A stretch of 52,349 nucleotides of DNA from Chloroflexota bacterium. Lineage in GTDB: Bacteria; Chloroflexota; Ktedonobacteria; Ktedonobacterales; JACDGC01. Positions 7,455 to 48,021 of the stretch are shown piece by piece. The stretch is taken from contig JAJYBV010000009.1 of NCBI GenBank assembly GCA_021778805.1, forward strand, positions 1-52,349. The letters run 5' to 3'. Both the position numbers and the translations under genes were made by a program. The number at the start of each line of letters is the position of its first letter. The stretch's first letter is position 1. A model generated the notes under the pieces. That model was given only the letters and a program-made list of their open reading frames with translations, did no database searches and was not told the origin of the DNA.

Positions 7455-7510
7455 TTGGGGGGACACCCCAATCCCCGCGCAACGGGCTACCGCCCCTTAC
7501 GTATCCTCAG
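7455..7510. repeat. Solo copy of the GGGGACACCCC palindromic repeat unit.
   Basis: The sequence ggggggacaccccaatccccgcgcaacgggctaccgccccttacgtatcc has the same unit architecture as the arrays at 29981-30235, 40594-41035 and 45749-46193. Confidence 0.8.
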
Positions 7511-7572
7511 TTTTGTGCGCCGCGCCGAAGCAAAAGCGCCATAAAATAACAATACTGATTTTTTATCTTATC

Positions 7573-10360: not shown

Positions 10361-10496
10361 TTTTTTTAGGCAAAACACCAACCAAAATCTACATCAGAAA
10401 TTTGCGCATTCTTAAGCGAGATGTTTGTTATCTCAATATCACTAAAATGCGTCATTTCCAATGCAGCGGTTAGTACATACTATAAGGAGACTTCAC

Positions 10497-11522: not shown

Positions 11523-11631
11523 TGAAATCGCCAACAGTTAGGGCTTCTATTTGTGCGGTTTTATGGAAGATTCACATCCTTCGCGCAAATTTTGCGGATT
11601 TGCAAATTGACCTATTTTTTGCGGAATAAAG

Positions 11632-11710
11632 ATACGAGAGACCTAAGCCAAAAGCGGATTCGGGGAGGACACCACCGACTTTATGCGTTACGTCTGCCCA
11701 AATCTCTAGT
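11632..11710. repeat. Degenerate copy of the 'agagacctaagcc...gggg.gacacc' MITE-like element.
   Basis: The sequence gagagacctaagccaaaagcggattcggggaggacaccacc is shared with the copies at 24211-24331 and 36357-36440. Confidence 0.5.
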
Positions 11711-11769
11711 AACTGCGCACAAATTAAAGGAACACCCTGGCAAGATAACATACAAAGGAACACATCACT

Positions 11770-12807: not shown

Positions 12808-12814
12808 GATTTAT

Positions 12815-15379
12815 ATGAAAGTTCCGTATCATTGGCTGAAAGAGTATGTCTCTTTCGATGCAAGTCCGGAAGAGCTTGCAGAAAAACTTACTATGGCAGG
12901 GCTGGAAGTTGAAAGCGTAGAACACGTTTGGAATAACATTATTACCGCCCGCATCAATCATTTGGAACCGGTAAAAGGCTCCAGCCATTTAAACGCAACG
13001 AAAATTTTTACCGGCGAAGGCCGTGAATTAAGCGTAGTGTGCGGCGCGCCAAATATTAAGGAAGGCGATATTGTGCCGCTAGCGCTGCCCGGCGCGCAAT
13101 TTTTTAATGACGCCGGCGAAACACTGACGATTCAGGCCACAAAAAAAATGGGCGTGGTTTCCGAAGGCATGCTTTGCTCGCCCCGCGAACTGGGGCTATC
13201 GAGCGATCATGAGGGAATTTATATTTTACCAAATGATACCCCGCTGGGTGTTTCACTGGCAGACGCGGTTATTCACTTGGATATTAAAGCGCACCGCGGA
13301 GATTTGTTCAGCATGGTGGGGATTGCCCGCGAAATGGCCGCTTTATTTGGCGCAAAGCTGAAGCAGCCCGAAATTAAATTACCCGAAAAAGGCAAAAATT
13401 CCATCAAAAAAATGGCGTCGATTACCGTGAAAGCTGAAGACGATTGCCCGCGTTTTACTGCGCGTGTTATCCGCAATATCAAAATGGGAAAAGCTCCCCT
13501 TTGGATGGCGCAACGATTAGCGCTCGCCGGAATGCGTTCCATAAACGTTATTGTTGATATAACCAATTATGTCATGCTAGAGTTAGGCCAGCCGCTACAC
13601 GCCTTCGATTACGATAAAGTTGCCAATCATCACCTGATTATCCGCCGCGCTGAACCGGGCGAAACGTTAGGCACGCTGGATGGCGCTATGCGCGAACTGA
13701 CACCGGATATGGTTTTGGTGTGCGATGAATCCGGGCCGCTTTCCGTTGCCGGCGTTATGGGCGGCGCATCCAGCGAAATTTCATCGGATACAACGCAGAT
13801 TTTGCTTGAAGCGGCTTCTTGGAATCCCGTAAATATTCGCAAAACATCGGCAAAATTAGGATTGCGCAGCGAAGCTTCCAGCAGATATGAAAAAGGCGTC
13901 GATCCGGAATTGGCGTTGCAGGGATTAAATCGCGCCGCACAATTAATGGCTGAATTAGCGGGCGGAGAAATTGTTCCGGGATACTTGGAGTCTTATGCTC
14001 ATCCGTCTCCTAACGTAACAATTCCATTCCACGCCAGCGCCTGTGAATGGCTGCTGGGGTACTCGGTAACTCCTGAAGAAGCTGCCGGCGCGCTGCGATC
14101 TTTGGAATTTGCTGTAGAGCAGAATAGTGATGATGGCTCTATGCTGGTAACGGTTCCCAGCTGGCGCGGCGATATTCTGGAATCGGCAGATTTGGTTGAA
14201 GAAATTGCCCGAGAATTGGGATATGACCGTATTACGGGAAAATATCCGACCGGTGACGCGCCGGAACCGCAAGCGGCGAACTGGTTTGATATTCAATATC
14301 AATTCCGCCGCCGGCTGCAGCAATGCGGCTGCGCAGAGATTGTTACATATCCGCTGACCAATCAGCGCTCTACACTGCAATTGCTGACCGATGAAAGCGA
14401 CACAGCGCAATTGCTGATTGGCGCGGTAGATGAGCTGGCTCCTGCAGAAAAAGGCAAAAAAAATAACGGGAAAAATAAACAGAAACAACAATCGGCGCAG
14501 TCTGTTTCCGAAACATATGATCAGGCAATACCTCCATTGTCAGCTGATGAACTGCCGGCGGTCAGACTGGTAAACGCTATCAGCGCAAAAATGGATATGC
14601 TGCGTATTACGCTGATGAATGCCATGCTGGAAACTATTTCGGCAAACTTACGATACGGAAACGCTTCGCTGCGGCTTTTCGAGATTGGACGCAGATACAT
14701 TGCGCTGCCAAACAGCGAACGGCAATTGCCGGATGAACGCCGCACGTTATGCGTTGGGCTGACCGGTTACACCGAAAGTTGGACCGAACCGCGCCGAGAA
14801 TATGATTTTTTTGATATGAAAGCGATTATTGAAAATATTGCCGGCGGACTGCATATGACAAATCTGCGCTTTACTCAAACGCAATCGCCAATATTTCATC
14901 CGGGCAGATGCGCGCTGTTAGAGGTGGAAGACAGCCACGCTAAAGAATCTCGATTTCACACAATTGGCGTAATGGGAGAAGTGCACCCAATTATTGCAGA
15001 GCGGTTCGGTATTTCGCAGCGAACGTATCTGTGCGAGATCGATCTTGCCAGATTATATCTTCACAATACGCCGCCGCGGTTCCAGCCGATTTCTCGATAT
15101 CCGGCGCTGACACGCGATATTGCTGTAGTCGCTGATATTTCAGTGCCGGCGCAAACGATTGCGGATGTTATAAAAGCATCCGGCGGAGAACTTACCCGTT
15201 CCGTTACATTGTTTGATGTTTATATGGGAGATCAGATACCGGAGGGCAAACGCAGCCTTGCGTTTACTGTAGAATATCAAGCGCAGGATCGCAATTTAAG
15301 CGACGCTGACGGAGATTTTTTACGTGAACAAACTGCAAATGAATTGAAAAAACAAGTACACGCGGTTGTGCGTGAATAA
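12815..15379 (+). CDS. pheT: Phenylalanine-tRNA ligase beta subunit.
   Basis: The N-terminus MKVPYHWLKEYV is the canonical PheT start. The B3/B4, B5 and anticodon-binding-like regions are present. A lysine-rich low-complexity insertion (EKGKKNNGKNKQKQQS) is encoded around 14440-14500. The start is placed at 12815, 8 nt after the hom stop, with an AAAGGAAATAAG Shine-Dalgarno-like sequence. The track ORF starts upstream at 12728. Confidence 0.9.
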   Translation: MKVPYHWLKEYVSFDASPEELAEKLTMAGLEVESVEHVWNNIITARINHLEPVKGSSHLNATKIFTGEGRELSVVCGAPNIKEGDIVPLALPGAQFFNDAGETLTIQATKKMGVVSEGMLCSPRELGLSSDHEGIYILPNDTPLGVSLADAVIHLDIKAHRGDLFSMVGIAREMAALFGAKLKQPEIKLPEKGKNSIKKMASITVKAEDDCPRFTARVIRNIKMGKAPLWMAQRLALAGMRSINVIVDITNYVMLELGQPLHAFDYDKVANHHLIIRRAEPGETLGTLDGAMRELTPDMVLVCDESGPLSVAGVMGGASSEISSDTTQILLEAASWNPVNIRKTSAKLGLRSEASSRYEKGVDPELALQGLNRAAQLMAELAGGEIVPGYLESYAHPSPNVTIPFHASACEWLLGYSVTPEEAAGALRSLEFAVEQNSDDGSMLVTVPSWRGDILESADLVEEIARELGYDRITGKYPTGDAPEPQAANWFDIQYQFRRRLQQCGCAEIVTYPLTNQRSTLQLLTDESDTAQLLIGAVDELAPAEKGKKNNGKNKQKQQSAQSVSETYDQAIPPLSADELPAVRLVNAISAKMDMLRITLMNAMLETISANLRYGNASLRLFEIGRRYIALPNSERQLPDERRTLCVGLTGYTESWTEPRREYDFFDMKAIIENIAGGLHMTNLRFTQTQSPIFHPGRCALLEVEDSHAKESRFHTIGVMGEVHPIIAERFGISQRTYLCEIDLARLYLHNTPPRFQPISRYPALTRDIAVVADISVPAQTIADVIKASGGELTRSVTLFDVYMGDQIPEGKRSLAFTVEYQAQDRNLSDADGDFLREQTANELKKQVHAVVRE

Positions 15380-16422: not shown

Positions 16423-16539
16423 GTGTACTTTTCCTTTATTTTGCGGCTAATTGGGTACTTTCAAACCATAGAATGGCTATTCTAACCACTGCCCGGCTGC
16501 ATCAGTCACGAATTCATAGGGTGCGCCGGTCTCTTACGC

Positions 16540-16640
16540 AGAGTTTGTGGCGTCCCCAAAGACATTTTAAAAATGAAACGCCGCGCTGCACTTTTCGTTA
16601 TGTGGCCTTTGTCGATATCCCCTGAGTAGTTACGAAGTTT
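16540..16640. repeat. Degenerate remnant of the GGGGACACCCC/MITE element family.
   Basis: The sequence ggcgtccccaaagacatttt ... atgtggcctttgtcgatatcccctgagtagttac shares the terminal 'ccctgagtagttac' segment with the 18544-18846 and 29935-30400 elements. Confidence 0.5.
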
Positions 16641-18543: not shown

Positions 18544-18846
18544 GTAACTACTCAGAGAGAACCAAAGCTTTGCATAAATAGGACATATACCACAAAATGA
18601 ACACCACATGTTGATGGTCTTAACTCAATGAAGTAGGTCATAAACAAAACTAACGCAAAAGATACAGCGAAACGCAAGCGGCAAGGGTCGCCCCTACCGG
18701 ATTGCATCGCCTCATGGGTACCGCGCAGTGGTTCATTTTATATAAAAATGTATTTGGGGACATCCCATTCCCCGCGTAAGGGGCAGCTGCCCCTTACGAA
18801 TCCCTGCATATGTGGCAGAGCAAGAGTATGATACCCCCTGAGTAGT
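18544..18846. repeat. MITE-like element with 12-bp terminal inverted repeats (GTAACTACTCAG / CTGAGTAGTTAC) carrying one GGGGACA(T)CCC palindromic unit.
   Basis: The left end is cgtaactactcagagagaacc (18544-18564). The right end is gataccccctgagtagttacc (18826-18846). The internal unit ggggacatcccattccccgcgtaaggggcagctgccccttacgaatcc lies at about 18758-18806. The right-end segment is homologous to the left end of the 29935-30400 element. Confidence 0.65.
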
Positions 18847-18857
18847 TACCAAAATTA

Positions 18858-20499: not shown

Positions 20500-20830
20500 G
20501 TGGATGGGCAGCCATAAAACGAACACCACACGATGAATCACGTGGCTTGTTTCCCCATTTCCTCCACCCATGTTGCGGTGCGCAATACTCAATATTTCGC
20601 ATGAATTGCTATATGAATACAAACACAGCGCGGTACACATTGAGGCAATGCAATCCGGTAGGGGCGACCTTTGCGGTCGCCCTTGCCACCCGGCAAATAA
20701 TATTGCATTAGGGAATAAAAAGATATTTTGGGGACACCCCAAACCCCGCGCAAGGGGCTACCGCCCCTTACGTATCCCTGGTTACGCAGGTATATCTTAT
20801 CCCTCTTTAAAAGTGAAAGATCATCATCAT
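20500..20830. repeat. Composite repeat element comprising the 'aaaacgaacaccacacgatgaatc...' module, one GGGGACACCCC unit, and the terminal 'cgtatccctggttacgcaggtatatcttatccctctttaa' segment.
   Basis: Each of the three parts recurs in the roughly 650-bp copies at 40560-41215 and 45541-46192. Confidence 0.7.
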
Positions 20831-21007
20831 GTGGCTTGTTTCCCTACTTCCACTTATTTTGCCACCATGTGGTATTTGTTCTTTTTATCAACTACATCAA
20901 TGCAAGCTGTTTCTCTTAAATTCCCCTATTGACGGCTTTATTCATTTCGTGTATAGTGGGTTTGTGCGGATTACCGCACATATTTTATTCATAATTAAGG
21001 AGCTTTT

Positions 21008-21112
21008 ATGAGCGCAAATCGATTGCAAAAGCAAGCCCCCACACGGCTACAAGCACACGGCTACAAGCACACGGCTACAAGCACACGGCTACAAATATTC
21101 TACTATTGTTAG
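21008..21112 (+). CDS. Candidate 34-codon upstream ORF (leader peptide) containing four 14-bp tandem repeats.
   Basis: An AAGGAG Shine-Dalgarno sequence lies 5 nt before the ATG at 21008. The ORF MSANRLQKQAPTRLQAHGYKHTATSTRLQIFYYC ends at TAG 21110-21112, 5 nt before the TTG start of the next gene. It is too short for the supplied ORF track. Confidence 0.3.
   Translation: MSANRLQKQAPTRLQAHGYKHTATSTRLQIFYYC
21041..21096. repeat. 14-bp direct tandem repeat (acacggctacaagc) in 4 copies, 3 of them perfect.
   Basis: Read directly at 21041-21096. The unit length is not a multiple of 3, and the repeat lies inside the upstream ORF. Confidence 0.9.
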
Positions 21113-24210: not shown

Positions 24211-24331
24211 GCTAGAGACCTGAGCCTAAAAATGGAATAAGAGGAATCGGGGGACACCCCCGGCCCCGTCAGGAGGCATACTGCCTCCTGCGCCTCCTGC
24301 TTTGTGCTTTACGTATGCTCAGGTCTCTAGC
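24211..24331. repeat. 121-bp MITE-like element with perfect 15-bp terminal inverted repeats.
   Basis: The left terminal repeat gctagagacctgagc (24211-24225) is the exact reverse complement of the right one, gctcaggtctctagc (24317-24331). The interior carries gggggacaccccc and a caggaggcatactgcctcctg hairpin. It is related to the copies at 11632 and 36357. Confidence 0.8.
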
Positions 24332-29875: not shown

Positions 29876-29934
29876 TTACATACACGTATATGTATCGGCA
29901 TATTGAGTGAAATTCTGAAGGCCTTTCAATTTTG

Positions 29935-30400
29935 TACCTACTCAGAGGGTATCATGCTTTTGCCTGGCCACATATGCCAAGGATTTGTAAGGGGCGGTAG
30001 CCCCTTACGCGAGGTTTGGGGTGTCCCCAAATACATTTTTTATATAAAAAGGAAACACCGCACGGTACACACAGGGATTCATAAGGGGCGGTAGCCCCTT
30101 ACGCAGGGATTGGGGTGTCCCCAAAATCTCTTTTTTTATATAAAAAGGAAACACCGCACGGTACACACAGGGATTTGTAAGGGGCGGATGCCCCTTGCGC
30201 GGGGTTTGGGGTGTCCCCAAAATTATTAATAAAAACCATATTCGCAAAGCAATATTGGCAGCGCTTGTGCTTCGGAGCGGTGTAGGTGGCCATCGGCCAC
30301 CAACGCCGCACTGGAGCGCAAACGCCGTACCGTATTTTTTATGTTATTTGGATACTCCTCCCTCTTTGCGGATTTTGTCAATATCTCTTGAGTAGTTACG
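29935..30400. repeat. MITE-like element with imperfect terminal inverted repeats (GTA(C/A)CTACTCAGAG) containing a tandem array of three palindromic units of about 95 bp.
   Basis: The left end is tacctactcagagggtatcatg. The right end is tctcttgagtagttacg. Units start at about 29981, 30075 and 30171, and each contains ggggcggtagcccc and ggggtgtcccc hairpins. Confidence 0.7.
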
Positions 30401-34250: not shown

Positions 34251-35534
34251 TTGGCAAAAAAATTATTGGCGCCGCAGTTGCGTTATACATACGGAACCAT
34301 ACAAACAAATTGGGAAGTGAGGTATACTATGCGTCCATCTCGTACACACGTGAATGCCGCAGCGAAGTTTCAAACTGCACAAAAAAAATTAACCGGAACT
34401 ATGCCTGCGCTGCAAACTAACCCGCTAAAAGCCACAACTAAACATTCTTTGCCGGAATATTCCCGGCCAGATGCGCCATTGGCTTTGTGCGTAGCGGCGC
34501 TGCTGCTGTTTGGCGCTATTATGACGCAAAGCGCCAGCCAATATATCGACCCGCTTGACCCCATGCTTATTGCCCGCAAAGAAATTTTATGGGACGCGAT
34601 CGGCGCAACCGCGCTGGGTGTAACAGCATTTACCGATTATCAGATATGGAAACGTATCGCGATTCCGTTGTTTATTGCAGCAATTTTGCTTTCAGCGGCG
34701 GCGTTAGTAATGGGGCATGCGTCCTTTGGCGCACAAAGATGGATTAGTTTGGGGTCTTTCATCACATTTCAGCCCAGTGAATTTGCAAAATTAGCGTTTA
34801 TTATCTATGGCGCAAAATTTATTGATGAACGTTCGGATATCAGAACATTTAAAGATATTTGGCCTGTTTTACTAACAGGATTTGTTTTAATTGCGCTGGT
34901 TTTATTGCAAAATGACCTCGGCACCGCCATTATTATTTTTGCAATAATGATGACTATGCTTCTAATGAGCGGCATAAAACTAGAACTGCTGCTCGTGCCT
35001 ATACTCGGGGCTGCAAGTTCCGTAGCTGCAATCATAGCGCTTTCACCATTTCGCCGCGCGCGTATATTAGGGTTTATGCGCCCACTGGATTGCTATAGTT
35101 CTGCCTCTTACCAAATTTGCCAAGCGTTGATTGCTTTAGGCTCCGGTGGCATTTTCGGCCGCGGTTTAGGGCAAAGTTTACAAAAAACGGGTTATTTGCC
35201 GGCGCCCTATACCGACTCAATAATAGCGGTCATTGGTGAGGAACTTGGCCTGATTGGTGTGTGTGCGGTAATTGCTGCCTTGGCGTTTGTTGTTTGGCGG
35301 GGAATAGCGCTTTCGCGAAACGCAGCCGATACATTCGGCAGTATTTTTGCCGCCGGCGCCGCGGCATGGCTGGGAACACAAGCATTGCTGAATATTGGAT
35401 CGAATGTTGCGGCGCTGCCTTATACCGGTGTTCCATTGCCATTTATTAGTTATGGCGGCGCATCATTAACTGCTTCGATGGCGGCAATCGGCGTTTTGTT
35501 GAATATATCAATGTATAAACGTCAGACAAAATAA
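34251..35534 (+). CDS. SEDS-family peptidoglycan glycosyltransferase (FtsW/RodA/SpoVE).
   Basis: SEDS hallmarks include SEFAK, ALGSGGIFGRGLGQS, AVIGEELGLIG and PLPFISYGGASL. The start is uncertain, with internal ATGs at 34329 and later. Confidence 0.8.
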   Translation: MAKKLLAPQLRYTYGTIQTNWEVRYTMRPSRTHVNAAAKFQTAQKKLTGTMPALQTNPLKATTKHSLPEYSRPDAPLALCVAALLLFGAIMTQSASQYIDPLDPMLIARKEILWDAIGATALGVTAFTDYQIWKRIAIPLFIAAILLSAAALVMGHASFGAQRWISLGSFITFQPSEFAKLAFIIYGAKFIDERSDIRTFKDIWPVLLTGFVLIALVLLQNDLGTAIIIFAIMMTMLLMSGIKLELLLVPILGAASSVAAIIALSPFRRARILGFMRPLDCYSSASYQICQALIALGSGGIFGRGLGQSLQKTGYLPAPYTDSIIAVIGEELGLIGVCAVIAALAFVVWRGIALSRNAADTFGSIFAAGAAAWLGTQALLNIGSNVAALPYTGVPLPFISYGGASLTASMAAIGVLLNISMYKRQTK

Positions 35535-35585: not shown

Positions 35586-35613
35586 TGTTCATGTCATTTA
35601 CACCGACATAACT

Positions 35614-35649
35614 TGGTTATTTTGGTTATTTTGGTTATTTTGGTTATTT
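35614..35649. repeat. 9-bp tandem repeat (ttggttatt) in 4 copies.
   Basis: Read directly. The last copy overlaps the stop codon of the minus-strand gene 35644..36135. Confidence 0.85.
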
Positions 35650-36135
35650 TGCAAATTCTTGCGCTTTAATCAGCGGCCATAAACCTATTGCAACTCCATA
35701 CATTAAATGCTCAACAGTAAATGACGGCCAGCCAATTGTCGAAGGCATCGATCCCGATCCGATAATCGGCAATACCACAAAACTCATGACCAATAAAATA
35801 ACCACACCATACATCATTCCAGCCGCCACAGAAACGAAACCGGCTATATGCAAGGCGCGCGCCGCAAAGCCATATATAATCCCAAATACCGCCGAAACCA
35901 TCATGTGAATAACTAAGCCAATCATCGCAGGGCCAAGTGTAAAGTAAAAACTCTGGCCCATTGATGTTTCCATTGCCTGCTTTCCAACTATTGGCGCAGC
36001 TATGCCATAAAGCGGTGTAAAAAATCCTTGATGTAAAAATGTCACGGAAGCCATCATGGCGTACATCGCCATAACAACCCCCGCAATTATACCGGCAATA
36101 GCGCCGTTCACTACAAATTTTCCTGTGTTTCCCAT
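35644..36135 (-). CDS. Hypothetical integral membrane protein, 163 aa with about 5 TM helices.
   Basis: The hydrophobicity pattern is clear. No family was recognised. Confidence 0.45.
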   Translation of the reverse strand: MGNTGKFVVNGAIAGIIAGVVMAMYAMMASVTFLHQGFFTPLYGIAAPIVGKQAMETSMGQSFYFTLGPAMIGLVIHMMVSAVFGIIYGFAARALHIAGFVSVAAGMMYGVVILLVMSFVVLPIIGSGSMPSTIGWPSFTVEHLMYGVAIGLWPLIKAQEFAK

Positions 36136-36356: not shown

Positions 36357-36440
36357 AAGAGACCTAAGCCTAAAAAGAAATAAGAGGAATCCGCGGCGAC
36401 ACACCAAACCACGCGCAAAGGGCTGGCGCCGCTTATTGTG
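36357..36440. repeat. Degenerate copy of the 'agagacctaagcctaaaaa..aataagaggaatc' element.
   Basis: Compare the left half of the 24211-24331 element. Confidence 0.5.
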
Positions 36441-36490
36441 AATCCTTATGCATATGAACACCCGGATATCCATCTAAAACCGATGTACCG

Positions 36491-38984: not shown

Positions 38985-40457
38985 TTACCGTTTCGGATAT
39001 GTGACAAAAACAGTCTTCACTTCCGACCATTCATCAACCGCAGTGGCTCCAAGCTCTCGATGCCCGTTGCCGCTCATTTTCATGCCGCCGAAGGGCAAAT
39101 GTGGTTCGGCCCCGGTTGTTCCGGCATTAACATAAATTAAACCGGATTGAATATCGCGCATAGCGTGGAAAACATTACGCATATTTTCAGTGAAAATGGC
39201 GCAAGATAAACCATATTCTACACTATTTGCAACTTCAATAGCTTCGTCATACGAAGCAACCGGCAAAACCGAAAGCACCGGACCAAATATTTCTTCACGC
39301 GCGATGCGCATTGTTGGGGTAACATCGGTGAAGACGGTAGGCTCAAAGAACGAGCCATTATCCAGTTCGCCGCCGCGCGCTGGGCGGCCGCCAACCAAAA
39401 GCCGGGCGCCTTCCGTTTTGCCAATTCCAATATATTCATCTACAGCGGCTACACGTGTTCGGTTTACCAGCGGCCCCATATCTGTTACGGGGTCTAGCCC
39501 GTCTCCAATTTTCTGGGATTTAGCCAGCGCAACCAAACGTTCATTCAGCGCGTCGACAACATTTTTATGAACGATGACGCGGCTGGTTGCAGTACAACGC
39601 TGTCCGGTTGTGCCGAAACCTGCCCAAGCAATCGCTGCCGCGGCGTCATCTAAATTTGCGTCATCCAGAACGATAACAGCGTTTTTACCGCCAAGTTCCA
39701 AGGTAACGCGGCGTAAATCTTTAGCGCAAATAGCGGCGATATGTTTGCCGACTTCGGTCGATCCGGTTAGTGAAATCATACTAACGCGCGGATCGCCGGT
39801 CAAAGCGTCGCCCAAAGTAGAGCCTGGCCCGGTTACCAAATTAATAACACCGGAGGGAATACCGGCTTCAGCCAAAATTTCCACTAATTTTAAGGACAGC
39901 AAAGGGGTATCGCTGGCAGGTTTTAAAATAACCGTATTCCCGGCCATCAGCGCAGGAAACGTTTTCCACGCCGGAATGGCTAAAGGAAAATTCCACGGGG
40001 TGATAATGCCAACAACACCCATTGGCTCACGAACGGTTAAACACATTTTATCGCGAAGCGCTGAAGGAACTGTTTCACCTTCAGCTCTGCGGCCTTCGGC
40101 GGCAACATATTTACCAAAATCGATAGCAGTTTGCAGATCGCCGCGCGCTTCTTTCAATGGTTTACCCATTTCCTGCGTGAGCAGTTTAGAAAGTTCTTCC
40201 CGGCGCTGTTCTAACAGCAGCGCGGCGCGCAAAATAATTTCGCCGCGCTCCGGCGATGGTGTGGCGCGCCAAGCCGGAAGCGCTTGTTTTGCGGCGGAAA
40301 TTGCCCGGTCTATATCTTCAGTACCGGATTGTTGAAAATAGCCAATGATTTGATCTTCATGGGCGGGATTGCGGTCGATGAATGTTTTTCCGCTAAGGGA
40401 ATTAACCCATTCACCGCCAATAAAATTCTGAAAGGTGGGGACACCGGCAGTCGTCAT
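38985..40457 (-). CDS. NAD(P)+-dependent aldehyde dehydrogenase.
   Basis: The ALDH Glu motif E-L-G-G-K-N-A is present. The Cys motif reads G-Q-R-C-T-A-T-S-R. F-T-G-S-T-E-V-G is also present. Confidence 0.85.
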   Translation of the reverse strand: MTTAGVPTFQNFIGGEWVNSLSGKTFIDRNPAHEDQIIGYFQQSGTEDIDRAISAAKQALPAWRATPSPERGEIILRAALLLEQRREELSKLLTQEMGKPLKEARGDLQTAIDFGKYVAAEGRRAEGETVPSALRDKMCLTVREPMGVVGIITPWNFPLAIPAWKTFPALMAGNTVILKPASDTPLLSLKLVEILAEAGIPSGVINLVTGPGSTLGDALTGDPRVSMISLTGSTEVGKHIAAICAKDLRRVTLELGGKNAVIVLDDANLDDAAAAIAWAGFGTTGQRCTATSRVIVHKNVVDALNERLVALAKSQKIGDGLDPVTDMGPLVNRTRVAAVDEYIGIGKTEGARLLVGGRPARGGELDNGSFFEPTVFTDVTPTMRIAREEIFGPVLSVLPVASYDEAIEVANSVEYGLSCAIFTENMRNVFHAMRDIQSGLIYVNAGTTGAEPHLPFGGMKMSGNGHRELGATAVDEWSEVKTVFVTYPKR

Positions 40458-40559
40458 CGAAGCCTGCTCCTATTGAAGCATGATAGCTGAAGCGCGCCGT
40501 CGCTAATGCGGAGCTGGCGCCGCAGCCCACAATATCAGTATATCATATTTGGTTATGAA

Positions 40560-41215
40560 CTTTAATTATTAAAAAGGGATATGATATACCTGCATAACCA
40601 AGGATACGTAAAGGGCGGTAGCCCCTTGCGCGGGGTTTGGGGTGTCCCCAAAGTATCTTTGTAAAAACAACCACCGCACGGTACACATGGGGATACGTAA
40701 GGGGCGGTAGCCCCTTGCGCGGGGTTTGGGGTGTCCCCAAAATATCTTTGTATAAACATCCATCGCACGGTACACATGGGGATACGTAAGGGGCGGATGT
40801 CCCTTACGCGGGGTTTGGGGTGTCCCCAAAATATCTTTGTATAAACATCCACCGCACGGTACACATGGGGATACGTAAAGGGCGGTAGCCCTTTGCGCGG
40901 GGTTTGGGGTGTCCCCAAAATATCTTTTTTTAAACATCCACTGCACGGTACACATGGGGATACGTAAGGGGCGGATGCCCCTTACGCGGGGATAGGGGTG
41001 TCCCCAAAATATCTTTTTTTATTTTTCCGATGGGAAATATTGGTGGCAATACGGCCACAAAACGAACACCACACGATGAATCGTGTGGCTTGTTTCCCCA
41101 CCTCCACCCGTGTGTAGCCGTGCAGTGATTATATTAAAACAAGCGCGATGGGGCACTCAATGTACTCTGCTCTGTTGATCTTCATCCTAATGAAAATATC
41201 AAAGACCATATGCCT
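40560..41215. repeat. Composite repeat, left copy. It comprises a terminal segment, five 89-bp tandem GGGGTGTCCCC palindromic units, and a roughly 185-bp 'aaaacgaacaccacacgatgaatcgtgtgg' module.
   Basis: Units start at 40602, 40691, 40780, 40869 and 40958. The 41035-41212 segment is almost identical to the reverse complement of 45541-45730. Confidence 0.85.
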
Positions 41216-41334
41216 TATTGAAATTGCCAAGGCGCTATAATTTTTATTGGCGTGTTTAACAGAACTGTGATAGGATACAATCAAGGCAAATCAACATAGT
41301 TCAGCAATGCAAAAAAATTTAGAGTGAGAACCGT

Positions 41335-42282
41335 ATGACCATATTTACTTCTTTGGAAACCACCGAACTAAAGCGCCCGCAAGTGATTAGTGTCGGCAAT
41401 TTCGATGGAGGACATCTTGGCCATGCGTATATGCTAAAAATTGCGCGCGATACAGCAGTTAATCTACAATCTGAGGTTACCGCTGTAACGTTTTGGCCGG
41501 CTCCAATGATGGTACTGCGGCCAGATGCTCATTTGCGATTTCTTACCCCAGGGTTGGAAAAAGCTGCCGCGCTGGAGCAAACGCGATTGGTTGATCATAT
41601 TGTAATGATTCCTTTTTCACACGAAATAGCGCAATTAAACGCCGAGGAATTTTTGCAAATGCTGCTGGAATATATTCCAATTTCCGCATTAGTTGAAGGT
41701 GATGATTTCCGATTAGGCCATAACCGCAGCGGAGATTCTCACATTGTTAGCGGATTTGCCGGCGCGCATAATTTTACCACAACCTATATTCCGCGCCTGC
41801 AAGACGCAAACGGGCCAATATCCAGCACCAGGATTCGCGAAAGCATTCAATTCGGCGATATGGTTTCGGCAGAAAATATGCTTGGTCGACCATATGCAGC
41901 TAAAGGTGTTGTTATCCATGGGGATGCGCGTGGCCGGCAATTAGGGTTTCCCACTGCAAATTTACGGGTTTCTGAACATAAATTACTGCCTGTAAACGGG
42001 ATATACGCCGTACAGGTTATTCGGGAGAAATTTCCGAATACTCTATTGCGCGGCGCGGCAAGTATTGGAACGAACCCAACATTTAATGGGCAGGAACACC
42101 GTTTAGAAGTATATATTTTGGATTTTAACTCTACAATTTATGATGAACAACTTGAAATACAATTTATACAGCGGCTACGCGGCGAAGAAAAGTTTTCTGG
42201 GGCAGATGAACTGATTGAGCAGATGTCTCGTGACGTAGAAGAGGTTCGGCGCGTTTTGGATATACGGGAAGTGAGGGCTTAA
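41335..42282 (+). CDS. ribF: Bifunctional riboflavin kinase / FMN adenylyltransferase.
   Basis: The N-terminal FAD-synthetase region carries VGNFDGGHLGH. The C-terminal riboflavin kinase region carries G-R-Q-L-G-F-P-T-A-N-L and E-V-Y-I-L-D-F. Confidence 0.9.
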   Translation: MTIFTSLETTELKRPQVISVGNFDGGHLGHAYMLKIARDTAVNLQSEVTAVTFWPAPMMVLRPDAHLRFLTPGLEKAAALEQTRLVDHIVMIPFSHEIAQLNAEEFLQMLLEYIPISALVEGDDFRLGHNRSGDSHIVSGFAGAHNFTTTYIPRLQDANGPISSTRIRESIQFGDMVSAENMLGRPYAAKGVVIHGDARGRQLGFPTANLRVSEHKLLPVNGIYAVQVIREKFPNTLLRGAASIGTNPTFNGQEHRLEVYILDFNSTIYDEQLEIQFIQRLRGEEKFSGADELIEQMSRDVEEVRRVLDIREVRA

Positions 42283-42284
42283 TC

Positions 42285-43127
42285 ATGAAACGGAACCGTA
42301 ACGCAATTGCTTGGTTTGAGGATAGGCTGCAAGGTTTAGTAGAAGGCTCTTTTGGCAGAATATTCCGCTCAAAACTGCAGCCGGTTGAAATATCGCATAA
42401 ATTAGTACAGGTAATGGAAGAAAATATTGTAGCGCAAGATTCTCGAAAATTAGCGCCAACTAAATATAACATTTACCTGAATCCACGAGATTACACAGAT
42501 TTAGAGCCAAGTTTGCCGGAAGTTACCACTCGTTTGCAAGATTATCTTATTTTAACGGCGAAACAGCGTGGCTATACGTTAATTATTCGTCCAATTTTGC
42601 ATTTCATTCCAGATAACAAAATATCTTTGGGGCAAACACAGGTTGAGGCTGTTTTTGAGAATATCGGTTCGTCGCAAAATATTCCTGCAAATCTCCAAAA
42701 CCCTATTCCGCAGCCAAATGTACCGCCAATTGAGACTGTAAACCCTAACGCAACTGCTATGATTTCACCTGAACAATCTGAACAATATGCTTCCGAGGTT
42801 GAAACAACGCTTACCCCTGCTCGGGATAACGCCATACCACACGCTGCGCTTTCCGAACGCGCCAGCCAAGGGTTCGGTAATACCTATCGTTTGCAAAGTG
42901 AAGTTACTCACATCGGCAGGCATTCAACTAATGATATAGTTATTAATAACCCGCGTGTTTCACGTTATCATGCGGAAATTCGCTATGAACAAGGCAAATT
43001 TATTATCTATGATATCAGCAGCACCAACGGGGTGCGCGTAAATAACCGGCGCGAAAAGCAGGCTGTTTTAAAAAATGGCGATGTTTTAGCGTTTGGCCCT
43101 GTTAGCTTTGTTTTTGAACGGAGGTAG
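42285..43127 (+). CDS. fhaA: FhaA-like protein with an N-terminal DUF3662 and a C-terminal FHA domain.
   Basis: The FHA core reads T-H-I-G-R-H-S-T-N-D-I-V-I-N-N-P-R-V-S-R-Y-H-A-E-I ... S-T-N-G-V-R-V-N. The gene sits immediately upstream of fhaB and rodA. Confidence 0.7.
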   Translation: MKRNRNAIAWFEDRLQGLVEGSFGRIFRSKLQPVEISHKLVQVMEENIVAQDSRKLAPTKYNIYLNPRDYTDLEPSLPEVTTRLQDYLILTAKQRGYTLIIRPILHFIPDNKISLGQTQVEAVFENIGSSQNIPANLQNPIPQPNVPPIETVNPNATAMISPEQSEQYASEVETTLTPARDNAIPHAALSERASQGFGNTYRLQSEVTHIGRHSTNDIVINNPRVSRYHAEIRYEQGKFIIYDISSTNGVRVNNRREKQAVLKNGDVLAFGPVSFVFERR

Positions 43128-43135
43128 CGCAGCAT

Positions 43136-43588
43136 ATGACAAATGCACTTACATTCGATCAGTTTCTGCTTATCTTACGCATTGCAATGATTGCAGTTTT
43201 GTATCTTTTTATACTTCAAGTTGTGCTGGTTTCCCGGCGTGATTTAAATATGGCGGTGCAATATCAATCTGCGCAGCCGGCCAAACAAGTAATTGGCCAC
43301 CTAACGGTTATGGATAGCGGAACCACAAAACTGAACCCCGGCAGAAGATTTGATATTTTTACAGATATGACATTGGGTCGGGGACCAACTAATACCGTTA
43401 TTTTAGAAAGCACCGTAGTTTCCGGTGAAAATACCCGTATCTATTACGAAAATAAATCGTTATGGATCGAAGATTTAGGCAGCAAAAACGGCACATTTGT
43501 AAACGAACAGCGGTTAACCAGCCCGCGCGCACTAAAATTAAACGATGTTATTCGAGTTGGCGATGTGCGTTTCAAGATAACTGCGTAA
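43136..43588 (+). CDS. fhaB: FhaB/FipA-like membrane-anchored FHA-domain protein.
   Basis: It has an N-terminal TM helix. The FHA core reads L-G-R-G-P-T-N-T-V-I-L ... S-G-E-N-T-R-I-Y ... S-K-N-G-T-F-V-N. Confidence 0.7.
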   Translation: MTNALTFDQFLLILRIAMIAVLYLFILQVVLVSRRDLNMAVQYQSAQPAKQVIGHLTVMDSGTTKLNPGRRFDIFTDMTLGRGPTNTVILESTVVSGENTRIYYENKSLWIEDLGSKNGTFVNEQRLTSPRALKLNDVIRVGDVRFKITA

Positions 43589-43679
43589 CATCTATGTCTT
43601 AATATATGCATGTACATTGATGGCTTAGTTCGCAAATATCTTTTCTTAAACTTTCCGCCAACATTCGACGGAAATTGCT

Positions 43680-45095
43680 GTGTGTTTATTTATCCTATTA
43701 GGAAGGCAGCAAAACATTATGAAACAAATATTGTCACGTATTGTGGATCTGCGTAATTACCGATGGAATGAATTGTTTTTGCTGATATTGCCAAGCGTGT
43801 TTATTCTGCTCGGCATGCTAAATCTGCAATATGTCAGTGTCAGCAACCAAGGAAAAGCTCCATCAGAAATTACGGCCAGCTCTTTACCGGGCATTGATAC
43901 ATTAGGTCCACAACTTCTGCTGATTGTGGCGCTGTTTGCTACCCATATTATTTTATCTTGGCTGATCCCGAAAGCAGATCAAACATTGCTGCCAATTACC
44001 GGTATGCTCAGTGCGCTGGGCGTTCTTATGGCTACCCGGCTTGGACCAGCGCTGCCATATCCCATACCGGTTCTGGGGTATCGCCAATTAATTTGGGTTA
44101 TCCTTGGACTCGTTTTTTGTATCGGCACAGTTTGGTTTACCCGATCGATAAAATGGCTGAGCCGTTATAAATATACATGGGCGGCCGCAGGTATTATCCT
44201 TGTGCTTGTTTCGCTTTTTCACTCTTTACGTGTTAAAAACTTCAACTCCCCCACGCATGATCAATTGAATTTGGGGTTTGGCGGGGTCGTATTTCAACCA
44301 TCTGAGCTGCTAAAATTATGCTTGGTTATATTTTTTGCAGCATATTTAAGCGAAAATCGTGAAGTATTGGCGCTTGGCGGTAAAAAAATAGGGCCGATAC
44401 ATATTCCACCACTTCGGCAATCTGCGCCATTGCTGGCAATATTATTTATTTCATTGCTGTTGTTTTTAGGCTTGCGCGAATTAGGTGTTGCGCTGCTGAT
44501 TTTCGGCATTTTTGTTTCGATGATTTACATTGCCACAAACAAAATGTCCTATGTGCTGTATTCACTAGGCTTTTTCGCCGGTGGCTCCCTTATTGCCTAT
44601 TATTTGCTTGGATACATACGCGATCGCGTTGCGCTTGTGGCAAACGCATTTTTGCCGGCATACGCCAACAATACCGGCTTTCAGATTGTGCAGGGATTAA
44701 TTGCCTTAGGAGCCGGCGGTATTTTTGGGCAAGGATTAGGACAAGGATATCCCTATTTTGTTCCCGCTGTGCAAACAGACTATGTAGCTGCGGCTGTAGG
44801 CGAGGAATTTGGCATGATGGGGCTATTTGCGCTCCTTGCCATTATGCTGCTGTTAATATATCGCGGATTTCGCATAGCTATGCGTTCACGCAGTGTATTT
44901 GAACAATTGCTTGGCGCTGGATTAAGCAGTATTTTTGCCATCCAAACCATTGTTATTTTGGCGGGCAACCTAAAATTAATACCGCTTACCGGCATACCAC
45001 TTCCGTTTATTACTTATGGCGGAAGTTCGGTTATTATTAATTTTATTATGGTTGGTCTGTTATTGCGTTTATCTGCGCCGGAAGAAACCGCATAA
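43680..45095 (+). CDS. rodA: SEDS-family peptidoglycan glycosyltransferase (RodA/FtsW).
   Basis: SEDS hallmarks include QPSELLKL, ALGAGGIFGQGLGQG, AVGEEFGMMG and PLPFITYGGSS. The gene sits directly after fhaA and fhaB, as in Actinobacteria and Chloroflexi. The likely start is the ATG at 43719 (MKQILSRIV). Confidence 0.8.
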   Translation: MCLFILLGRQQNIMKQILSRIVDLRNYRWNELFLLILPSVFILLGMLNLQYVSVSNQGKAPSEITASSLPGIDTLGPQLLLIVALFATHIILSWLIPKADQTLLPITGMLSALGVLMATRLGPALPYPIPVLGYRQLIWVILGLVFCIGTVWFTRSIKWLSRYKYTWAAAGIILVLVSLFHSLRVKNFNSPTHDQLNLGFGGVVFQPSELLKLCLVIFFAAYLSENREVLALGGKKIGPIHIPPLRQSAPLLAILFISLLLFLGLRELGVALLIFGIFVSMIYIATNKMSYVLYSLGFFAGGSLIAYYLLGYIRDRVALVANAFLPAYANNTGFQIVQGLIALGAGGIFGQGLGQGYPYFVPAVQTDYVAAAVGEEFGMMGLFALLAIMLLLIYRGFRIAMRSRSVFEQLLGAGLSSIFAIQTIVILAGNLKLIPLTGIPLPFITYGGSSVIINFIMVGLLLRLSAPEETA

Positions 45096-45191
45096 CTCGG
45101 CATCGGCAGATATCGCAACAAAACCTGCACATTAGATTTGCCGGCTGAGCAGACCAATATAATGCCGACTTTTTATCGAAAATAAAACTAT

Positions 45192-45545
45192 TTGTTAGGG
45201 ACCATATTACCTATGATGATAGCCGCAATAACTTATAATGTTTCTTTATTTACTGCCTGTTTCTTTTGGGCGTTTTCCGGAATGATTGCCGGAACTGTTG
45301 CCAATTTTGTTGTGCGTGGCCGAGGCGGATGCATTTTTGGCAATATTTTCCTTGGTTTAGTTGGCGCATTGGTAGCAACATTTCTTATCAATGTGTTTTT
45401 GCAGCAAAAAAATGTGACACTGGGCTTTTTTGAAACAACTGTTATTGCCAGTGTTGCCTCTACACTCATTGCCTATATTTTTCATACAGCGCGTAAAGCT
45501 GAAAACAAATATCAGAAAAAGCTTATGGAAAAACCACCTCAATAA
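45192..45545 (+). CDS. GlsB/YeaQ/YmgE-family small membrane protein (transglycosylase-associated protein family).
   Basis: It has 3 TM helices and glycine-rich motifs. The pattern GNIFLGLVGALVATFL is typical of the family. Confidence 0.5.
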   Translation: MLGTILPMMIAAITYNVSLFTACFFWAFSGMIAGTVANFVVRGRGGCIFGNIFLGLVGALVATFLINVFLQQKNVTLGFFETTVIASVASTLIAYIFHTARKAENKYQKKLMEKPPQ

Positions 45546-46192
45546 TGGTCTTTGATATTTTCATCAGGATGAAGATCAACAGAGCAGAGTACATTGAGTG
45601 CCCCATCGCGCCTGTTTTAATATAATCACTGCACGGTACACATGGGTGGAGGTGGGGAAACAAGCCACACGATTCATCGTGTGGTGTTCGTTTTGGGGCC
45701 ACCTTGCCATCCAATATTTCCCATCGGAAAAATAAAAAAAGATATTTTGGGGACACCCCTATCCCCGCGTAAGGGGCATCCGCCCCTTACGTATCCCCAT
45801 GTGTACCGTGCGATGGATGTTTATACAAAGATATTTTGGGGACACCCCTATCCCCGCGCAAGGGGCTACCGCCCCTTACGTATCCCCATGGGTACCGTGC
45901 AGTGGATGTTTTTACAAAGATACTTTGGGGACACCCCAAACCCCGCGCAAAGGGCTACCGCCCTTTACGTATCCCCATGGGTACCGTGCGGTGGTTGTTT
46001 ATAAAAGATATTTTTGGGGACACCCCTATCCCCGCGCAAGGGGCTACCGCCCCTTACGTATCCCCATGGGTACCGTGCGGTGGATGTTTATAAAAAGATA
46101 TTTTGGGGACACCCCTATCCCCGCGTAAGAGGCATCCGCCCCTTACGTATCCCTGGTTACGCTGGTATATCTTATCCCTCTTTAATTGTTAA
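45541..46192. repeat. Composite repeat, right copy, an inverted duplicate of 40560-41215.
   Basis: Five 89-bp units start at 45749, 45838, 45927, 46016 and 46105. The terminal segment is cgtatccctggttacgctggtatatcttatccctctttaa. The inner roughly 185 bp are about 97 % identical to the reverse complement of 41035-41212. Confidence 0.85.
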
Positions 46193-46227
46193 AGTTCATA
46201 ATAGCAGCGACCAACGAAAAACACAGA

Positions 46228-48021
46228 TTAGGCTGCGATATCTTGAGGAATATTTTCACTTGGCGACGGTGGCTCATCTTCTTCCTTTACTGTTTTTTCC
46301 ACCCAATGAAATATAACCGATGCTTGATACAAATCTTGAGAAATTGTGTTAATGCTTTGGGTATGCGTAGTAACATATTCAACTTTTTCATTCAACACAA
46401 CTGTAGCAGAAGATACTTGTTCAGCAGCAGCGCTGTTTTCCACACCAACATTTGCCGCAGCAGAAATTGCGTCGTTTACCTTAGCAGCGTTTTGGGTAAT
46501 ATTTATTGCCTGCTGCTCTGTTCCGCCCACCCGGTGCAGCGCGTATTCCACTTGATCAACGCCAGTCTCCATTGACGTTACTGCGCCTTGCGTTTCATTT
46601 TGCACTTCCTTAATAATAGCCGCAATTTCACGGGCAGCGTCACCAGATCGTTCTGCAAGCTTGCGGATTTCATCGGCAACCACCGCAAAGCTGCGGCCAT
46701 GTTCACCGGCGCGCGCAGCAACAATAGCAGCGTTTAAAGACAACAATTCCGTTTGATCTGCTAATTCATCAATAGTTTGGATGATAGAGCCAATTTCAGT
46801 CGAACGCTTCCCTAACGCACGCACTTCTTGTGAAGATTGATATATGGCTTTTTTCAACGCTTGAATAACTTGGAGGGCTTCCTTGGCGTCTGTATTCATC
46901 CGCAAAGCCTCATTATTCAGTTTTTCAACTTCATGAGCTGCCTTAATTAAATTTTTACTTTGCTGATGCGCTCCGGTTGCAACTTGTTCAATAGCAGATG
47001 CAACTTGGTGCGACGCTTCATTTGTATGCGCGGAAAAAACAACAACATCTTTGGTCTTCATGGCCATTTGTAAGCTTAGTTCTGTTACATGTGCAACCAG
47101 AATGCGCACCTTCGCAATAGTTTCACTTTGCTGTACAATTAATTTGCCAATAACGTTATTTCCTCTCCAACTCAAAAGTGTTTCATCAATATCGCTCAGT
47201 TCACCTTGCGCCATATTTTCTAAAACAGCGGATAGCAGATGCAACGGTTTGGTAATAGTATAATTTAATATTTCAGCAAAGAAAATTGCGCCAATTGTAA
47301 TGATGATGCCTAACAAAATCATCAACCAAAACAATGTATTAATTGCGGTTGAAATATTTGATTCCGCGGCATTCGTTTGCAATAGCAAAGCTGCAGAAAG
47401 ATTTGCCATATTTTGCAGCAGCATATTTTCATTGCTTTGCATTTGACTATACAATCCAATAGTTTGCAGATGCGCTGAATTTGATCCACCGGATAGCGCG
47501 TTTTGCAGTATTGTGGCGCTGCTTAAAAAATTCTGAATGGCAGTTTCTGTTTGACGAAACTGTTTCTGCGTTTGGGTGTTTTCATTCAATTTTGCAAAAT
47601 GGTTCATTGCTACGGACAATGCAGACTCGGAAGTTTGCAGCGTCTGTTTAATGGCAGGTGAATAGCCAAATGAAACATTTATGGCCTGTGAAAAGTTTAA
47701 AACAATAGTTAAACTATCGGCGCGCATTGCCGAAATATCATTCGCTCCCACCGTATCATTATTTACTATTCCTGCGTTGATTGATTTAATTTGCATATCT
47801 TTTTGAATTACTACCGCTCCGGTAATAAAAAATACAACAAAAATATATGCTGACGCGCTTCTCATTCTTGTTGAGATGGTTAAATTATTAAAAAGCGAAA
47901 ATGCTTTACGCCGAACTAGATGCATGTAACCCGCCATGGCGCAAATATACCTCCTATAAGTTAGGTTTGCATACACATAACTATCGGAATGTATATTCAT
48001 AACATAAGTGGCATTTTGCAA
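46228..48021 (-). CDS. Methyl-accepting chemotaxis protein.
   Basis: The highly conserved MCP signalling hairpin [32 protein letters not shown] is present, along with a HAMP domain and two TM helices. The true start is probably internal, at the [16 protein letters not shown] (47865). Confidence 0.85.

Follow-up and report, generated by a model that had tools for sequence, protein, structure and literature searches.

A dispersed modular repeat with a covarying double-hairpin unit flanks the ribF operon of a Ktedonobacteria bacterium

The 52,349-nucleotide contig JAJYBV010000009.1 of a Chloroflexota bacterium of the Ktedonobacteria (GenBank assembly GCA_021778805.1), analysed over its whole length and referred to below as the window, carries two long composite repeats in inverted orientation on either side of a five-gene segment that runs from ribF to a glsB-like gene. 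With a probability that we put at about 0.72, these two arms are copies of an abundant, modular, non-coding repeat of the design A-Bn-C, which would form a new family similar to the REP, BOX and MITE (miniature inverted-repeat transposable element) types. The arms are not a special pair: the same repeat is found at seven secure and two weak loci in the window, the arms included, and at others elsewhere.

Structure of the two arms

The left arm spans positions 40553-41209 on the forward strand, between the divergent genes for an aldehyde dehydrogenase (Aldedh, reverse strand) and ribF (forward strand), and the right arm spans 45545-46201 on the reverse strand, between the convergent ends of the glsB-like gene (forward) and the gene of a methyl-accepting chemotaxis protein (MCP, reverse). 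Each arm is 657 nt long in a gapped global alignment. This alignment, a repeat search and Tandem Repeats Finder all recovered the inverted repeats flanking the ribF to glsB-like block that had been noticed initially. Their modular anatomy, first read as a terminal segment, five units and a module of about 185 bp, was essentially right and measures as a 49-nt terminal segment (A), 4.7 units of 89 bp (B) and a 193-nt inner module (C), arranged alike in both arms. The repeat search and Tandem Repeats Finder place the arrays at 40602-41016 and 45738-46153, with a period of 89, 4.7 copies and 91-92% matches, and both also recovered the inverted pairing of the two arrays.

The arms differ at 53 positions (92.0% identity overall). 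Identity between them is 85.7% in the outer terminal segment (49 nt), 91.1% in the array (415 nt) and 95.3% in the inner module (193 nt), with seven substitutions and two one-base indels; the description of the copies as near-identical was overstated for the arrays, and that of a handful of substitutions was fair for the inner module. The arms are related by copying and are probably paralogous members of the family. The longest run identical between them covers 101 nt (40943-41043), which has a P of about 0.005 if differences are evenly spread, and further identical stretches measure 52 and 46 nt. Such patchy identity fits gene conversion or recent exchange, or else uneven constraint, so that the recent duplication or gene conversion proposed at the outset agrees with the copying and with the patchiness.

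Terminal segment A of the left arm (40553-40601, forward strand; TTATGAACTTTAAT...AGGGATATGATATACC...) has homologues at 46154-46201 (reverse strand), at 20.8 kb, at an ABC-transporter locus represented by contigs L003 and L018, and at the 5' end of contig L001. The left array (40602-41016, forward strand) contains one double-hairpin module per unit, matched by the covariance model R1 described below at 40594-40659, 40683-40748, 40772-40837, 40861-40926 and 40950-41015 with 55-65 bits. Inner module C of the left arm (41017-41209, forward strand) includes the hairpin CCACACGAT-GA-ATCGTGTGG at 41069-41088, which is terminator-like on both strands, and an inverted half-unit at 41107-41128; an inverted half-unit is present in the inner module of each arm. 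Within the window, the innermost 81 nt of module C are confined to the two arms. The right arm, on the reverse strand, consists of the inner module (45545-45737), the array (45738-46153; model matches at 45739-45804, 45828-45893, 45917-45982, 46006-46071 and 46095-46160) and the terminal segment (46154-46201).

The left arm is clear of the conserved DNA adjoining the start codons of both divergent genes. The right arm begins 26 nt past the MCP stop codon, in the same direction as MCP, and the glsB-like gene takes its last codon and its stop codon from the inner end of this arm.

Both inner modules contain a promoter-like site (TTGCCA, 17-18 nt, AAAAAT) at 41021-41049 (reverse strand) and 45704-45733 (forward strand), in each case pointing outward, into the array. 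By eye, a similar layout of a TTGC.. hexamer and an A-rich hexamer precedes the unit at 7.4 kb, at 30.2 kb and at the ABC locus. The inner modules also have in common a 26-codon open reading frame (ORF; MVFDIFIRMKINRAEYIECPIALVLI) at 41129-41209 (reverse) and 45545-45625 (forward), the right copy of which has an ATG overlapping the stop codon of the glsB-like gene (TAATG). Between these ORF copies there is only a single synonymous and a single non-synonymous difference, so that the comparison is uninformative.

A family of dispersed intergenic copies

With up to three mismatches allowed, the window contains 10 occurrences of the 43-nt core of the unit, none being expected in shuffles, and 16 of the string GGGGTGTCCCC against 0.01 expected. 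Searches with nhmmer and the covariance model delineate the seven secure and two weak loci, all nine of them intergenic by comparison with the listed long ORFs. In addition to the arms at 40.6 kb (forward) and 45.9 kb (reverse), these include a single-unit member at 7449-7514 (reverse strand), antisense to both of its neighbours; a weak, decayed member at 16510-16567 (forward); and a decayed member at 36385-36454 (reverse). The member at 18544-18849 (reverse) is MITE-like, with one unit between 30-nt terminal inverted repeats (GTAACTACTCAG..., 73%, with a 13-nt perfect core), and begins 9 nt past the stop codon of a histidine kinase gene. The member at 20520-20860 (reverse) is a mosaic in which terminal segment A and one unit (20720-20785) are accompanied by the submodule of C with its hairpin (20522-20556), reversed relative to the unit. 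The diverged member at 24211-24331 (reverse; 50.5 bits) has a different hairpin-1 sequence with the same structure and is bounded by 18-nt terminal inverted repeats of 94% complementarity. Finally, the member at 29934-30400 (forward) contains 2.6 units of 96 bp (model matches at 29973-30038, 30067-30132 and 30163-30228) between the imperfect terminal inverted repeats GTACCTACTCAGAGGG and CTCTTGAGTAGTTACG.

Other contigs of the same species carry further A-Bn-C composites at the ABC-transporter locus, at a PIN-toxin locus and at a fourth locus. Compared with A + 4.7 B + C in both arms, the copy at the ABC locus is A + 2 B + C, and across loci the modules are reshuffled into mosaics. Because 89 is not a multiple of 3, a coding repeat is excluded, and ORFs running through the arrays shift frame. 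A CRISPR-like array was rejected for its lack of spacers. For a phage or plasmid origin, there was no blastn match and none in viral contigs.

A perfect 14-bp tandem repeat, CACACGGCTACAAG, present in 3.9 copies at 21040-21094, adjoins the mosaic member at 20.5-20.9 kb. Read in reverse complement, this tandem repeat is similar to the GTGTGTAGCCGTGCAG stretch at 41108-41123 in the left inner module.

Orthologous sites in a related genome

A related Ktedonobacteria metagenome-assembled genome (MAG), denoted L008, contains the orthologous region at 80-85% nucleotide identity, with the same gene order and orientation: Aldedh on the reverse strand, ribF to the glsB-like gene on the forward strand and MCP on the reverse strand. 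As the initial annotation had advised, the arms were looked for at these orthologous sites, and the arrays were lacking there. Homology to L008 ends at 40554 and restarts at 41242, then ends again at 45538 and restarts at 46293, and the L008 spacers are 186 and 157 bp long where those of the window are about 690 and 750 bp. In the left spacer of L008 there is a single diverged unit (26.6 bits), oriented the opposite way, and the right spacer has no unit. The 36.4-kb copy is missing from L008 as well, so that three window loci are empty or different in this relative.

Since L008 lacks the arrays at a locus of unchanged gene order and orientation, both arms are gains of the lineage of the window. 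By the same comparison, the orientation of the operon in the window is ancestral and the block is not a transposed cassette; a composite transposon or genomic island carrying the operon is ruled out, given that the same genes are in place in L008 without the repeats. The last ~20 codons of the MCP gene (46228-46292), beside the right arm, have no DNA-level alignment to L008, and the remainder of the gene is ~81% identical.

The double-hairpin unit and its distribution in metagenomes

Each 89-bp unit comprises, in order, hairpin 1, a G tract, hairpin 2 and a U-rich tail. Hairpin 1 has 10 bp, CGUAAGGGGC-GGUA-GCCCCUUGCG, and hairpin 2 is (UUU)GGGG-UGU-CCCC(AAA). More generally, the module is about 65 nt long and consists of a GC hairpin of 9-10 bp with a GGUA, GGAA or GGAU loop, the G tract, the GGGG-UGU-CCCC hairpin and a pyrimidine-rich tail. 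In local variants, hairpin 1 is kept by compensatory change (AAAGGGC/GCCCUUU), and the copies in L008 and at 24.3 kb have the same shape with very different stem sequences.

A strict 25-nt pattern of the unit had 0 matches in JGI metagenomes. The relaxed pattern GGGGCGGWWGCCCC-N8-20-GGGGTGTCCCC was found in 58 metagenome contigs of GC content 0.42-0.68, several of them labelled soil or groundwater, and the relaxed two-hairpin pattern had no match in viral contigs. These 58 contigs have no orthologues in common with the window. Their common design is (A)GC-GGGG-NN, hairpin 1, C-GGGG, hairpin 2 and a pyrimidine tract of ~13 nt. The outer pairs of hairpin 1 covary freely (CUUA/UAAG, CAUA/UAUG, CCAA/UUGG, GUCA/UGAC, GCAG/CUGC), as do those of hairpin 2, and the module is conserved across contigs while the flanking modules differ.

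The covariance model R1, built from 34 metagenome copies and four window units, gives 48-65 bits for every window unit, 50.5 for the 24.3-kb copy and 26.6 for the L008 copy. It identifies 98 instances in 54 sources, with multiple copies on some contigs, and tandem arrays with periods of 72, 75, 93-96, 104 and 120 nt. Individual loci illustrate this variety. Contig L040, of another metagenome lineage, has an inverted doublet around a long central hairpin at 1735-1902, and module copies or tandem arrays with periods of 72-120 nt are found in L063 (6291-6543), L074 (1253-1389) and L077 (77-141). In L077, GTAACTACTCAGG stands in front of the module, a sequence that is also the end of the 96-bp-type members of the window.

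A search of the window and 16 metagenome loci against Rfam 15 yielded no match at the gathering threshold, and no tRNA or tmRNA was matched either. Two sub-threshold matches to RF02937 (Clostridiales-2), with 20-22 bits against a cutoff of 58.6, overlapped motif copies in L056 and L059 and were judged to be due to chance. Searches of the searchable literature for the core strings and for MITEs in Ktedonobacteria returned nothing relevant.

Covariation, folding strand and position relative to genes

The helices of the unit covary. In a model-based alignment of 91 distinct sequences, the fraction of paired cells is 90.5% compared with 79.3% in shuffles; two-sided changes affect 169 cells compared with 57.6 +/- 6.8, a number reached by 0 of 500 shuffles; and compensatory change is seen in 11 of the 15 pairs. 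Sliding the partners abolishes the signal, the slid controls being far lower, and a MAFFT alignment not fitted to the structure gives covariation in the same direction. G.U pairs outnumber A.C by 35 to 14. At positions +7 to +16, pyrimidines make up 77-94% of the tail, with no more than 8% G and 15% A, and the tail lies opposite invariant G tracts, so that C/U interchange in the tail keeps the pairing.

In 44 of 46 copies the strand that carries GGGGTGTCCCC has the more stable predicted fold, which makes it the folding strand. Single-sequence folds often close a three-way junction in which the tail pairs both with the 5' G tract and with that of the linker; this predicted extension of the structure is suggestive, not proven. 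A G-quadruplex was ruled out, two of the four G tracts being lost in the L008 copy, and so was a CsrA-type sponge of GGA loops, most loops being GGUA rather than GGA.

Metagenome copies located between co-directional genes are sense in 18 cases and antisense in three, one of the three being the second arm of a palindromic doublet, and most metagenome copies begin within ~30 nt of the upstream stop codon. The upstream genes (ROK kinase, signal peptidase, release factor 2, cupredoxin) are unrelated housekeeping genes, and therefore the module is no leader or riboswitch dedicated to a single gene family. When the nine window loci are taken together with the ABC and PIN copies (L003, L004), five closely follow a co-directional gene, namely MCP, histidine kinase, T2SSE ATPase, the ABC gene and the PIN operon; the others occupy divergent regions, except that the 7.4-kb copy is antisense to the genes on either side. 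A scan with a consensus terminator flagged hairpin 2 and its tail in five units, as well as the inner-module hairpin on both strands, and this terminator-like hairpin sits right after the last gene of the operon. The tail of the metagenome copies is mixed C/U, not U-rich; where the module lies and which way it points would suit an intrinsic terminator.

These observations bear on the alternative that comes closest to the repeat-family reading, that is, that the units are primarily functional RNAs of ~65-80 nt, structured and hitherto undescribed, at mRNA 3' ends or between cistrons rather than selfish DNA. They would act as a terminator, an exonuclease block or a protein-binding site, and the five-unit arrays on either side of the operon would be strengthened forms of them. 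The covariation and strand asymmetry, the pyrimidine-only tail that retains G pairing through C/U interchange, the sense bias close to stop codons, the terminator-like calls and the conservation of the module in contigs of 42-68% GC amid varying flanking modules all argue for it. However, copies at 16.5 and 36.4 kb are decayed, many copies lie in divergent promoter regions, the 7.4-kb copy is antisense to both neighbours and the tail, with its mixture of C and U, forms no classical U tract. Furthermore, the module shuffling, the terminal inverted repeats of some members, the empty orthologous sites in the relative and the tandem amplification with a variable period are features of a spreading element. 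We therefore regard a primary RNA function as a tentative possibility, less probable than the repeat-family reading.

A stronger version, which we consider unlikely, is that the ~65-80-nt module is an undescribed, metagenome-wide structured RNA of mRNA 3' ends that may fold as a three-way junction and was amplified here into five-unit arrays insulating an essential cell-envelope operon on both sides; it could, for instance, serve as a portable terminator or stabiliser, with a mobile element as the agent of its spread. Bolder still would be the addition that the inverted arrays recombine in nature and give two orientations of the operon.

Does the operon invert?

The initial annotation proposed that the arms could mediate reversible inversion of the enclosed segment, which would flip a growth-essential operon relative to its neighbours, or form cruciforms. 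A real, possibly reversible, population inversion of the 4.3-kb block by homologous recombination has some points in its favour. The 657-bp arms, with their identical stretches of 101, 52 and 46 nt, are a plausible recombination substrate, and both reciprocal hybrid junctions are present in public assemblies of other samples. Contig L002 joins the MCP flank, right-type outer units and a left-type inner part to ribF; L015 joins the MCP flank, the whole right array and a left-type inner module to 10 nt of the ribF side; and L019 joins the glsB-like gene, the right inner module and left outer units to Aldedh. In all three hybrids the crossover is inside an arm-shared stretch, as in true recombinants.

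These contigs are, however, poor witnesses. The MCP flank is found at either end of L002, and L015 stops 10 nt beyond the repeat. Chimeric paths through the repeat are frequent: the same arrays are connected with three unrelated loci, namely the ABC locus in L003 and L018, the PIN locus in L004 and the fourth locus at the 5' end of L001, and the ABC locus has ribF attached to it in one MAG but the glsB-like gene in another. The same assemblies thus link the arrays to unrelated sequence, and for this reason the "inverted" junctions of the hybrids are not trustworthy; arbitrary paths through the repeat graph explain the hybrids and the other joins more simply than rearrangements among strains that are 99.5-100% identical. 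Contig L006 (1-63) is a fold-back at a 20-nt inverted motif. The long contigs that span both arms (L010, L013/L016 and three to four similar ones) have the window orientation, as do L001, which spans the right arm, and the related species represented by L008. The advice to look for both orientations in long reads or assembly graphs, followed here with assembled contigs, turned up both reciprocal junction types amid common chimeric joins, and only the window orientation in long contigs. The 8% divergence between the arms would, in addition, depress recombination.

A population inversion therefore seems doubtful to us. It is a possible recombination outcome, not one demonstrated by these short-read assemblies. 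As a regulatory switch, inversion is very unlikely. Crossovers would fall inside the repeats, so that ribF would keep its immediate upstream DNA (41210-41334), a presumed promoter region partly conserved with L008, in either orientation, and the idea of a switch finds no support here. Domain scans of the window ORFs detected no recombinase or invertase gene nearby, the arms are as long as 657 bp, and the genes around them encode Aldedh, RibF, FHA, SEDS and MCP proteins and a histidine kinase. Compared with known inversions, the long inverted flanking repeats are the classical substrate of RecA-dependent exchange, like insertion sequences, rrn operons and other long repeats, and there is no trustworthy orientation heterogeneity at the ribF operon. 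Compared with Hin-, Gin- and Fim-type switches, the arms are 8% diverged, neither an invertase gene nor short recombination sites were seen, and inversion would not uncouple the ribF promoter from its genes. A cruciform between arms 4.3 kb apart is unrealistic, and only local hairpins can form.

Relation to known repeat elements

A close structural parallel is provided by the BOX elements of Streptococcus pneumoniae, which are organised as boxA-boxB(n)-boxC, reach a total size of ~640 bp and are predicted to form stable stem-loops when transcribed (PMC3049150). Like these, the family described here is non-coding, intergenic and modular (A-Bn-C), with variable tandem internal units, ORF-like frames through the arrays and unit numbers that differ between assemblies or strains. 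Unlike the 45-bp BOX units, its units are 89-96 bp long, and the host is Ktedonobacteria-like, from another phylum than the streptococci, the comparison with BOX being one of descriptions only. Moreover, no significant inverted repeat links A and C in the window composite, and its unit is by itself a module conserved over many metagenome contigs, with covarying helices.

The REP, BIME and REPIN sequences of Proteobacteria are abundant intergenic imperfect palindromes that are often located after stop codons, clustered and mosaic, and are thought to act on mRNA 3' ends. The window family is likewise abundant, mosaic and found after stop codons, and inverted doublets occur (L040). In contrast to the single REP palindrome of 20-40 nt, its unit is a two-hairpin module of ~65 nt, and its copies are mainly direct tandem repeats. 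The GTAG foot typical of REP is not present as such: GTAG is found only inside the GGTA-G loop of some units, with GGAT or GGAA in others.

With MITEs such as the Correia/NEMIS elements of Neisseria and the RUP and SPRITE elements of pneumococci (PMC3049150), the family shares small size, lack of coding capacity, multiple copies (seven secure and two weak loci) and presence or absence between relatives (three loci differ in L008). Three window members (18544-18849, 24211-24331 and 29934-30400) have terminal inverted repeats, the combination of a hairpin and a U-rich tail resembles SPRITE, and side-effects on neighbouring genes through promoters or terminators are possible in both cases. The differences are that the 657-bp composite lacks demonstrable terminal inverted repeats or target duplications and that the core of the family is GC-rich rather than AT-rich. 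Taken together, we class the window repeat as a new family of a known type of element that, at the sequence level, would belong to none of the BOX, REP and MITE families named above.

In another reading, the module is the recognition hairpin of single-stranded DNA transposition by an HUH/Y1 enzyme, the repeats being REP/REPIN-like or derived from IS200/IS605, and the orientation bias reflects the direction of replication instead of RNA function. Conserved imperfect palindromes with an asymmetry of the folding strand, the inverted doublet in L040, the clusters and tandem arrays of several contigs, and a composite with no significant terminal inverted repeat or definable target duplication are all in line with this view. 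An orientation bias relative to genes is also predicted by insertion into the lagging-strand template, the preference of IS608 and ISDra2. Against this, the conserved GTAG head of REP does not occupy the 5' foot of the palindrome and disappears from the variants with GGAU and GGAA loops, some members carry ordinary terminal inverted repeats, and domain scans of the window saw no RAYT or TnpA gene. The pyrimidine-only tail also fits G.U pairing in RNA better than pairing in DNA. On balance, we find such an origin less probable than either the RNA function or the inversion considered above.

Least credible is an artefact, in which MEGAHIT created the inverted duplication or the five-unit arrays: the window is indeed a k141 short-read MEGAHIT contig (identical to ERZ27236897 k141_1640455), other assemblies have two to three units instead of five (L010, L001, L002) and chimeras occur at the repeat, but all four junctions between flank and repeat recur in independent samples, including per-run Logan contigs and unitigs (Aldedh-repeat in L012 and L011, MCP-repeat in L014 and L015, repeat-ribF in L005 and L007, glsB-like-repeat in L017, L020 and L021), the left and right arrays recur in L012 and L015 at 99.7-99.96%, and the flanking synteny agrees with L008. 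Because the junctions recur in the assemblies of other samples, the inverted duplication is not the artefact of one assembly.

Origin and spread of the repeat

We propose that the repeat family spreads as a non-autonomous mobile or duplicative element. Its arrays would lengthen and shorten by slippage or unequal exchange, as the two to three units of L010, L001 and L002 may illustrate, assembly collapse being a possible cause of these lower numbers, and gene conversion, to which the 101-nt identical tract points, may have made the copies partly uniform. In transcripts, the module would form a stable 3'-end structure that could serve as a protector of the mRNA end or as a weak terminator, to judge from its strand asymmetry and position; a role as mRNA 3'-end structure has been proposed for REP, BOX, SPRITE and Correia elements (PMC3049150). 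The inverted layout at the ribF operon would then have arisen incidentally, from one insertion between divergent promoters and another between convergent gene ends, both harmless places, and would make a RecA-type inversion of the 4.3-kb block possible.

Several points weigh against this proposal or parts of it. No transposase domain, and likewise no RAYT or TnpA gene, was seen among the window ORFs scanned, which belong to the ~60 kb of this genome covered by the analysis; for want of such a partner, the case for mobility comes solely from presence or absence and from copy number. The terminal inverted repeat of the 657-bp composite is not significant when compared with shuffles (P ~0.06-0.1). 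The flanks of the arms have no clear common direct repeat beyond a possible TA, the empty sites of L008 are too diverged for exact boundaries, and, as far as these sequences go, no target-site duplication appears definable for the composite. The number and order of units come from k141 short-read assemblies. As for the RNA structure, alignment A5 used in the covariation test was fitted to the model, and both G-tract pairings are formed in 27 of 46 copies compared with a mean of 11.6 with random tails, which is a moderate excess. Window copies between co-directional genes include one sense and one antisense, too few loci for a bias, and strand-specific transposition of single-stranded DNA would give the same orientation bias as a role in mRNA.

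Gene content of the enclosed segment and other features

The enclosed segment (41210-45544, forward strand, 4335 bp) contains five genes, for which the initial labels were essentially right by Pfam and NCBIfam, the glsB-like match being weak and below the cutoff. These are ribF (41335-42282; RibF), an fhaA-like gene (42285-43127; FhaA_N and FHA), an fhaB-like gene (43136-43588; FhaB/FipA-like FHA), a SEDS gene of the FtsW/RodA/SpoVE family (43719-45095) and the glsB-like gene (45213-45545), which encodes a 110-aa membrane protein with a sub-cutoff match of the YeaQ/YmgE(GlsB) type (E 2.5e-6); all five are on the forward strand. The flanking genes, both on the reverse strand, encode the aldehyde dehydrogenase (38985-40457; Aldedh by Pfam and NCBIfam) and the methyl-accepting chemotaxis protein (46228-47937; Pfam).

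Two further features were observed in other parts of the window. A homoserine dehydrogenase gene (11770-12807) lies between pheS and pheT (10461-15379), an arrangement unusual for this gene pair. A perfect 9-bp tandem repeat, TTGGTTATT, present in 4.3 copies at 35613-35651, sits between a second SEDS gene (FtsW/RodA/SpoVE; 34251-35534) and a DUF1440 gene.

Implications

For the ribF locus itself, the result is mostly deflationary: the inverted arms would represent two insertions of a common genomic repeat rather than a purpose-built device for inversion. Public contigs with apparent orientation variants show how such repeats create chimeric MAG contigs and call for caution in structural inference. 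The family is useful as an annotation feature and as a warning flag for misassembly. Beyond that, it is a candidate new REP-like system in Chloroflexota-type bacteria and offers a testable case of a mobile element that carries an mRNA 3'-end structure.

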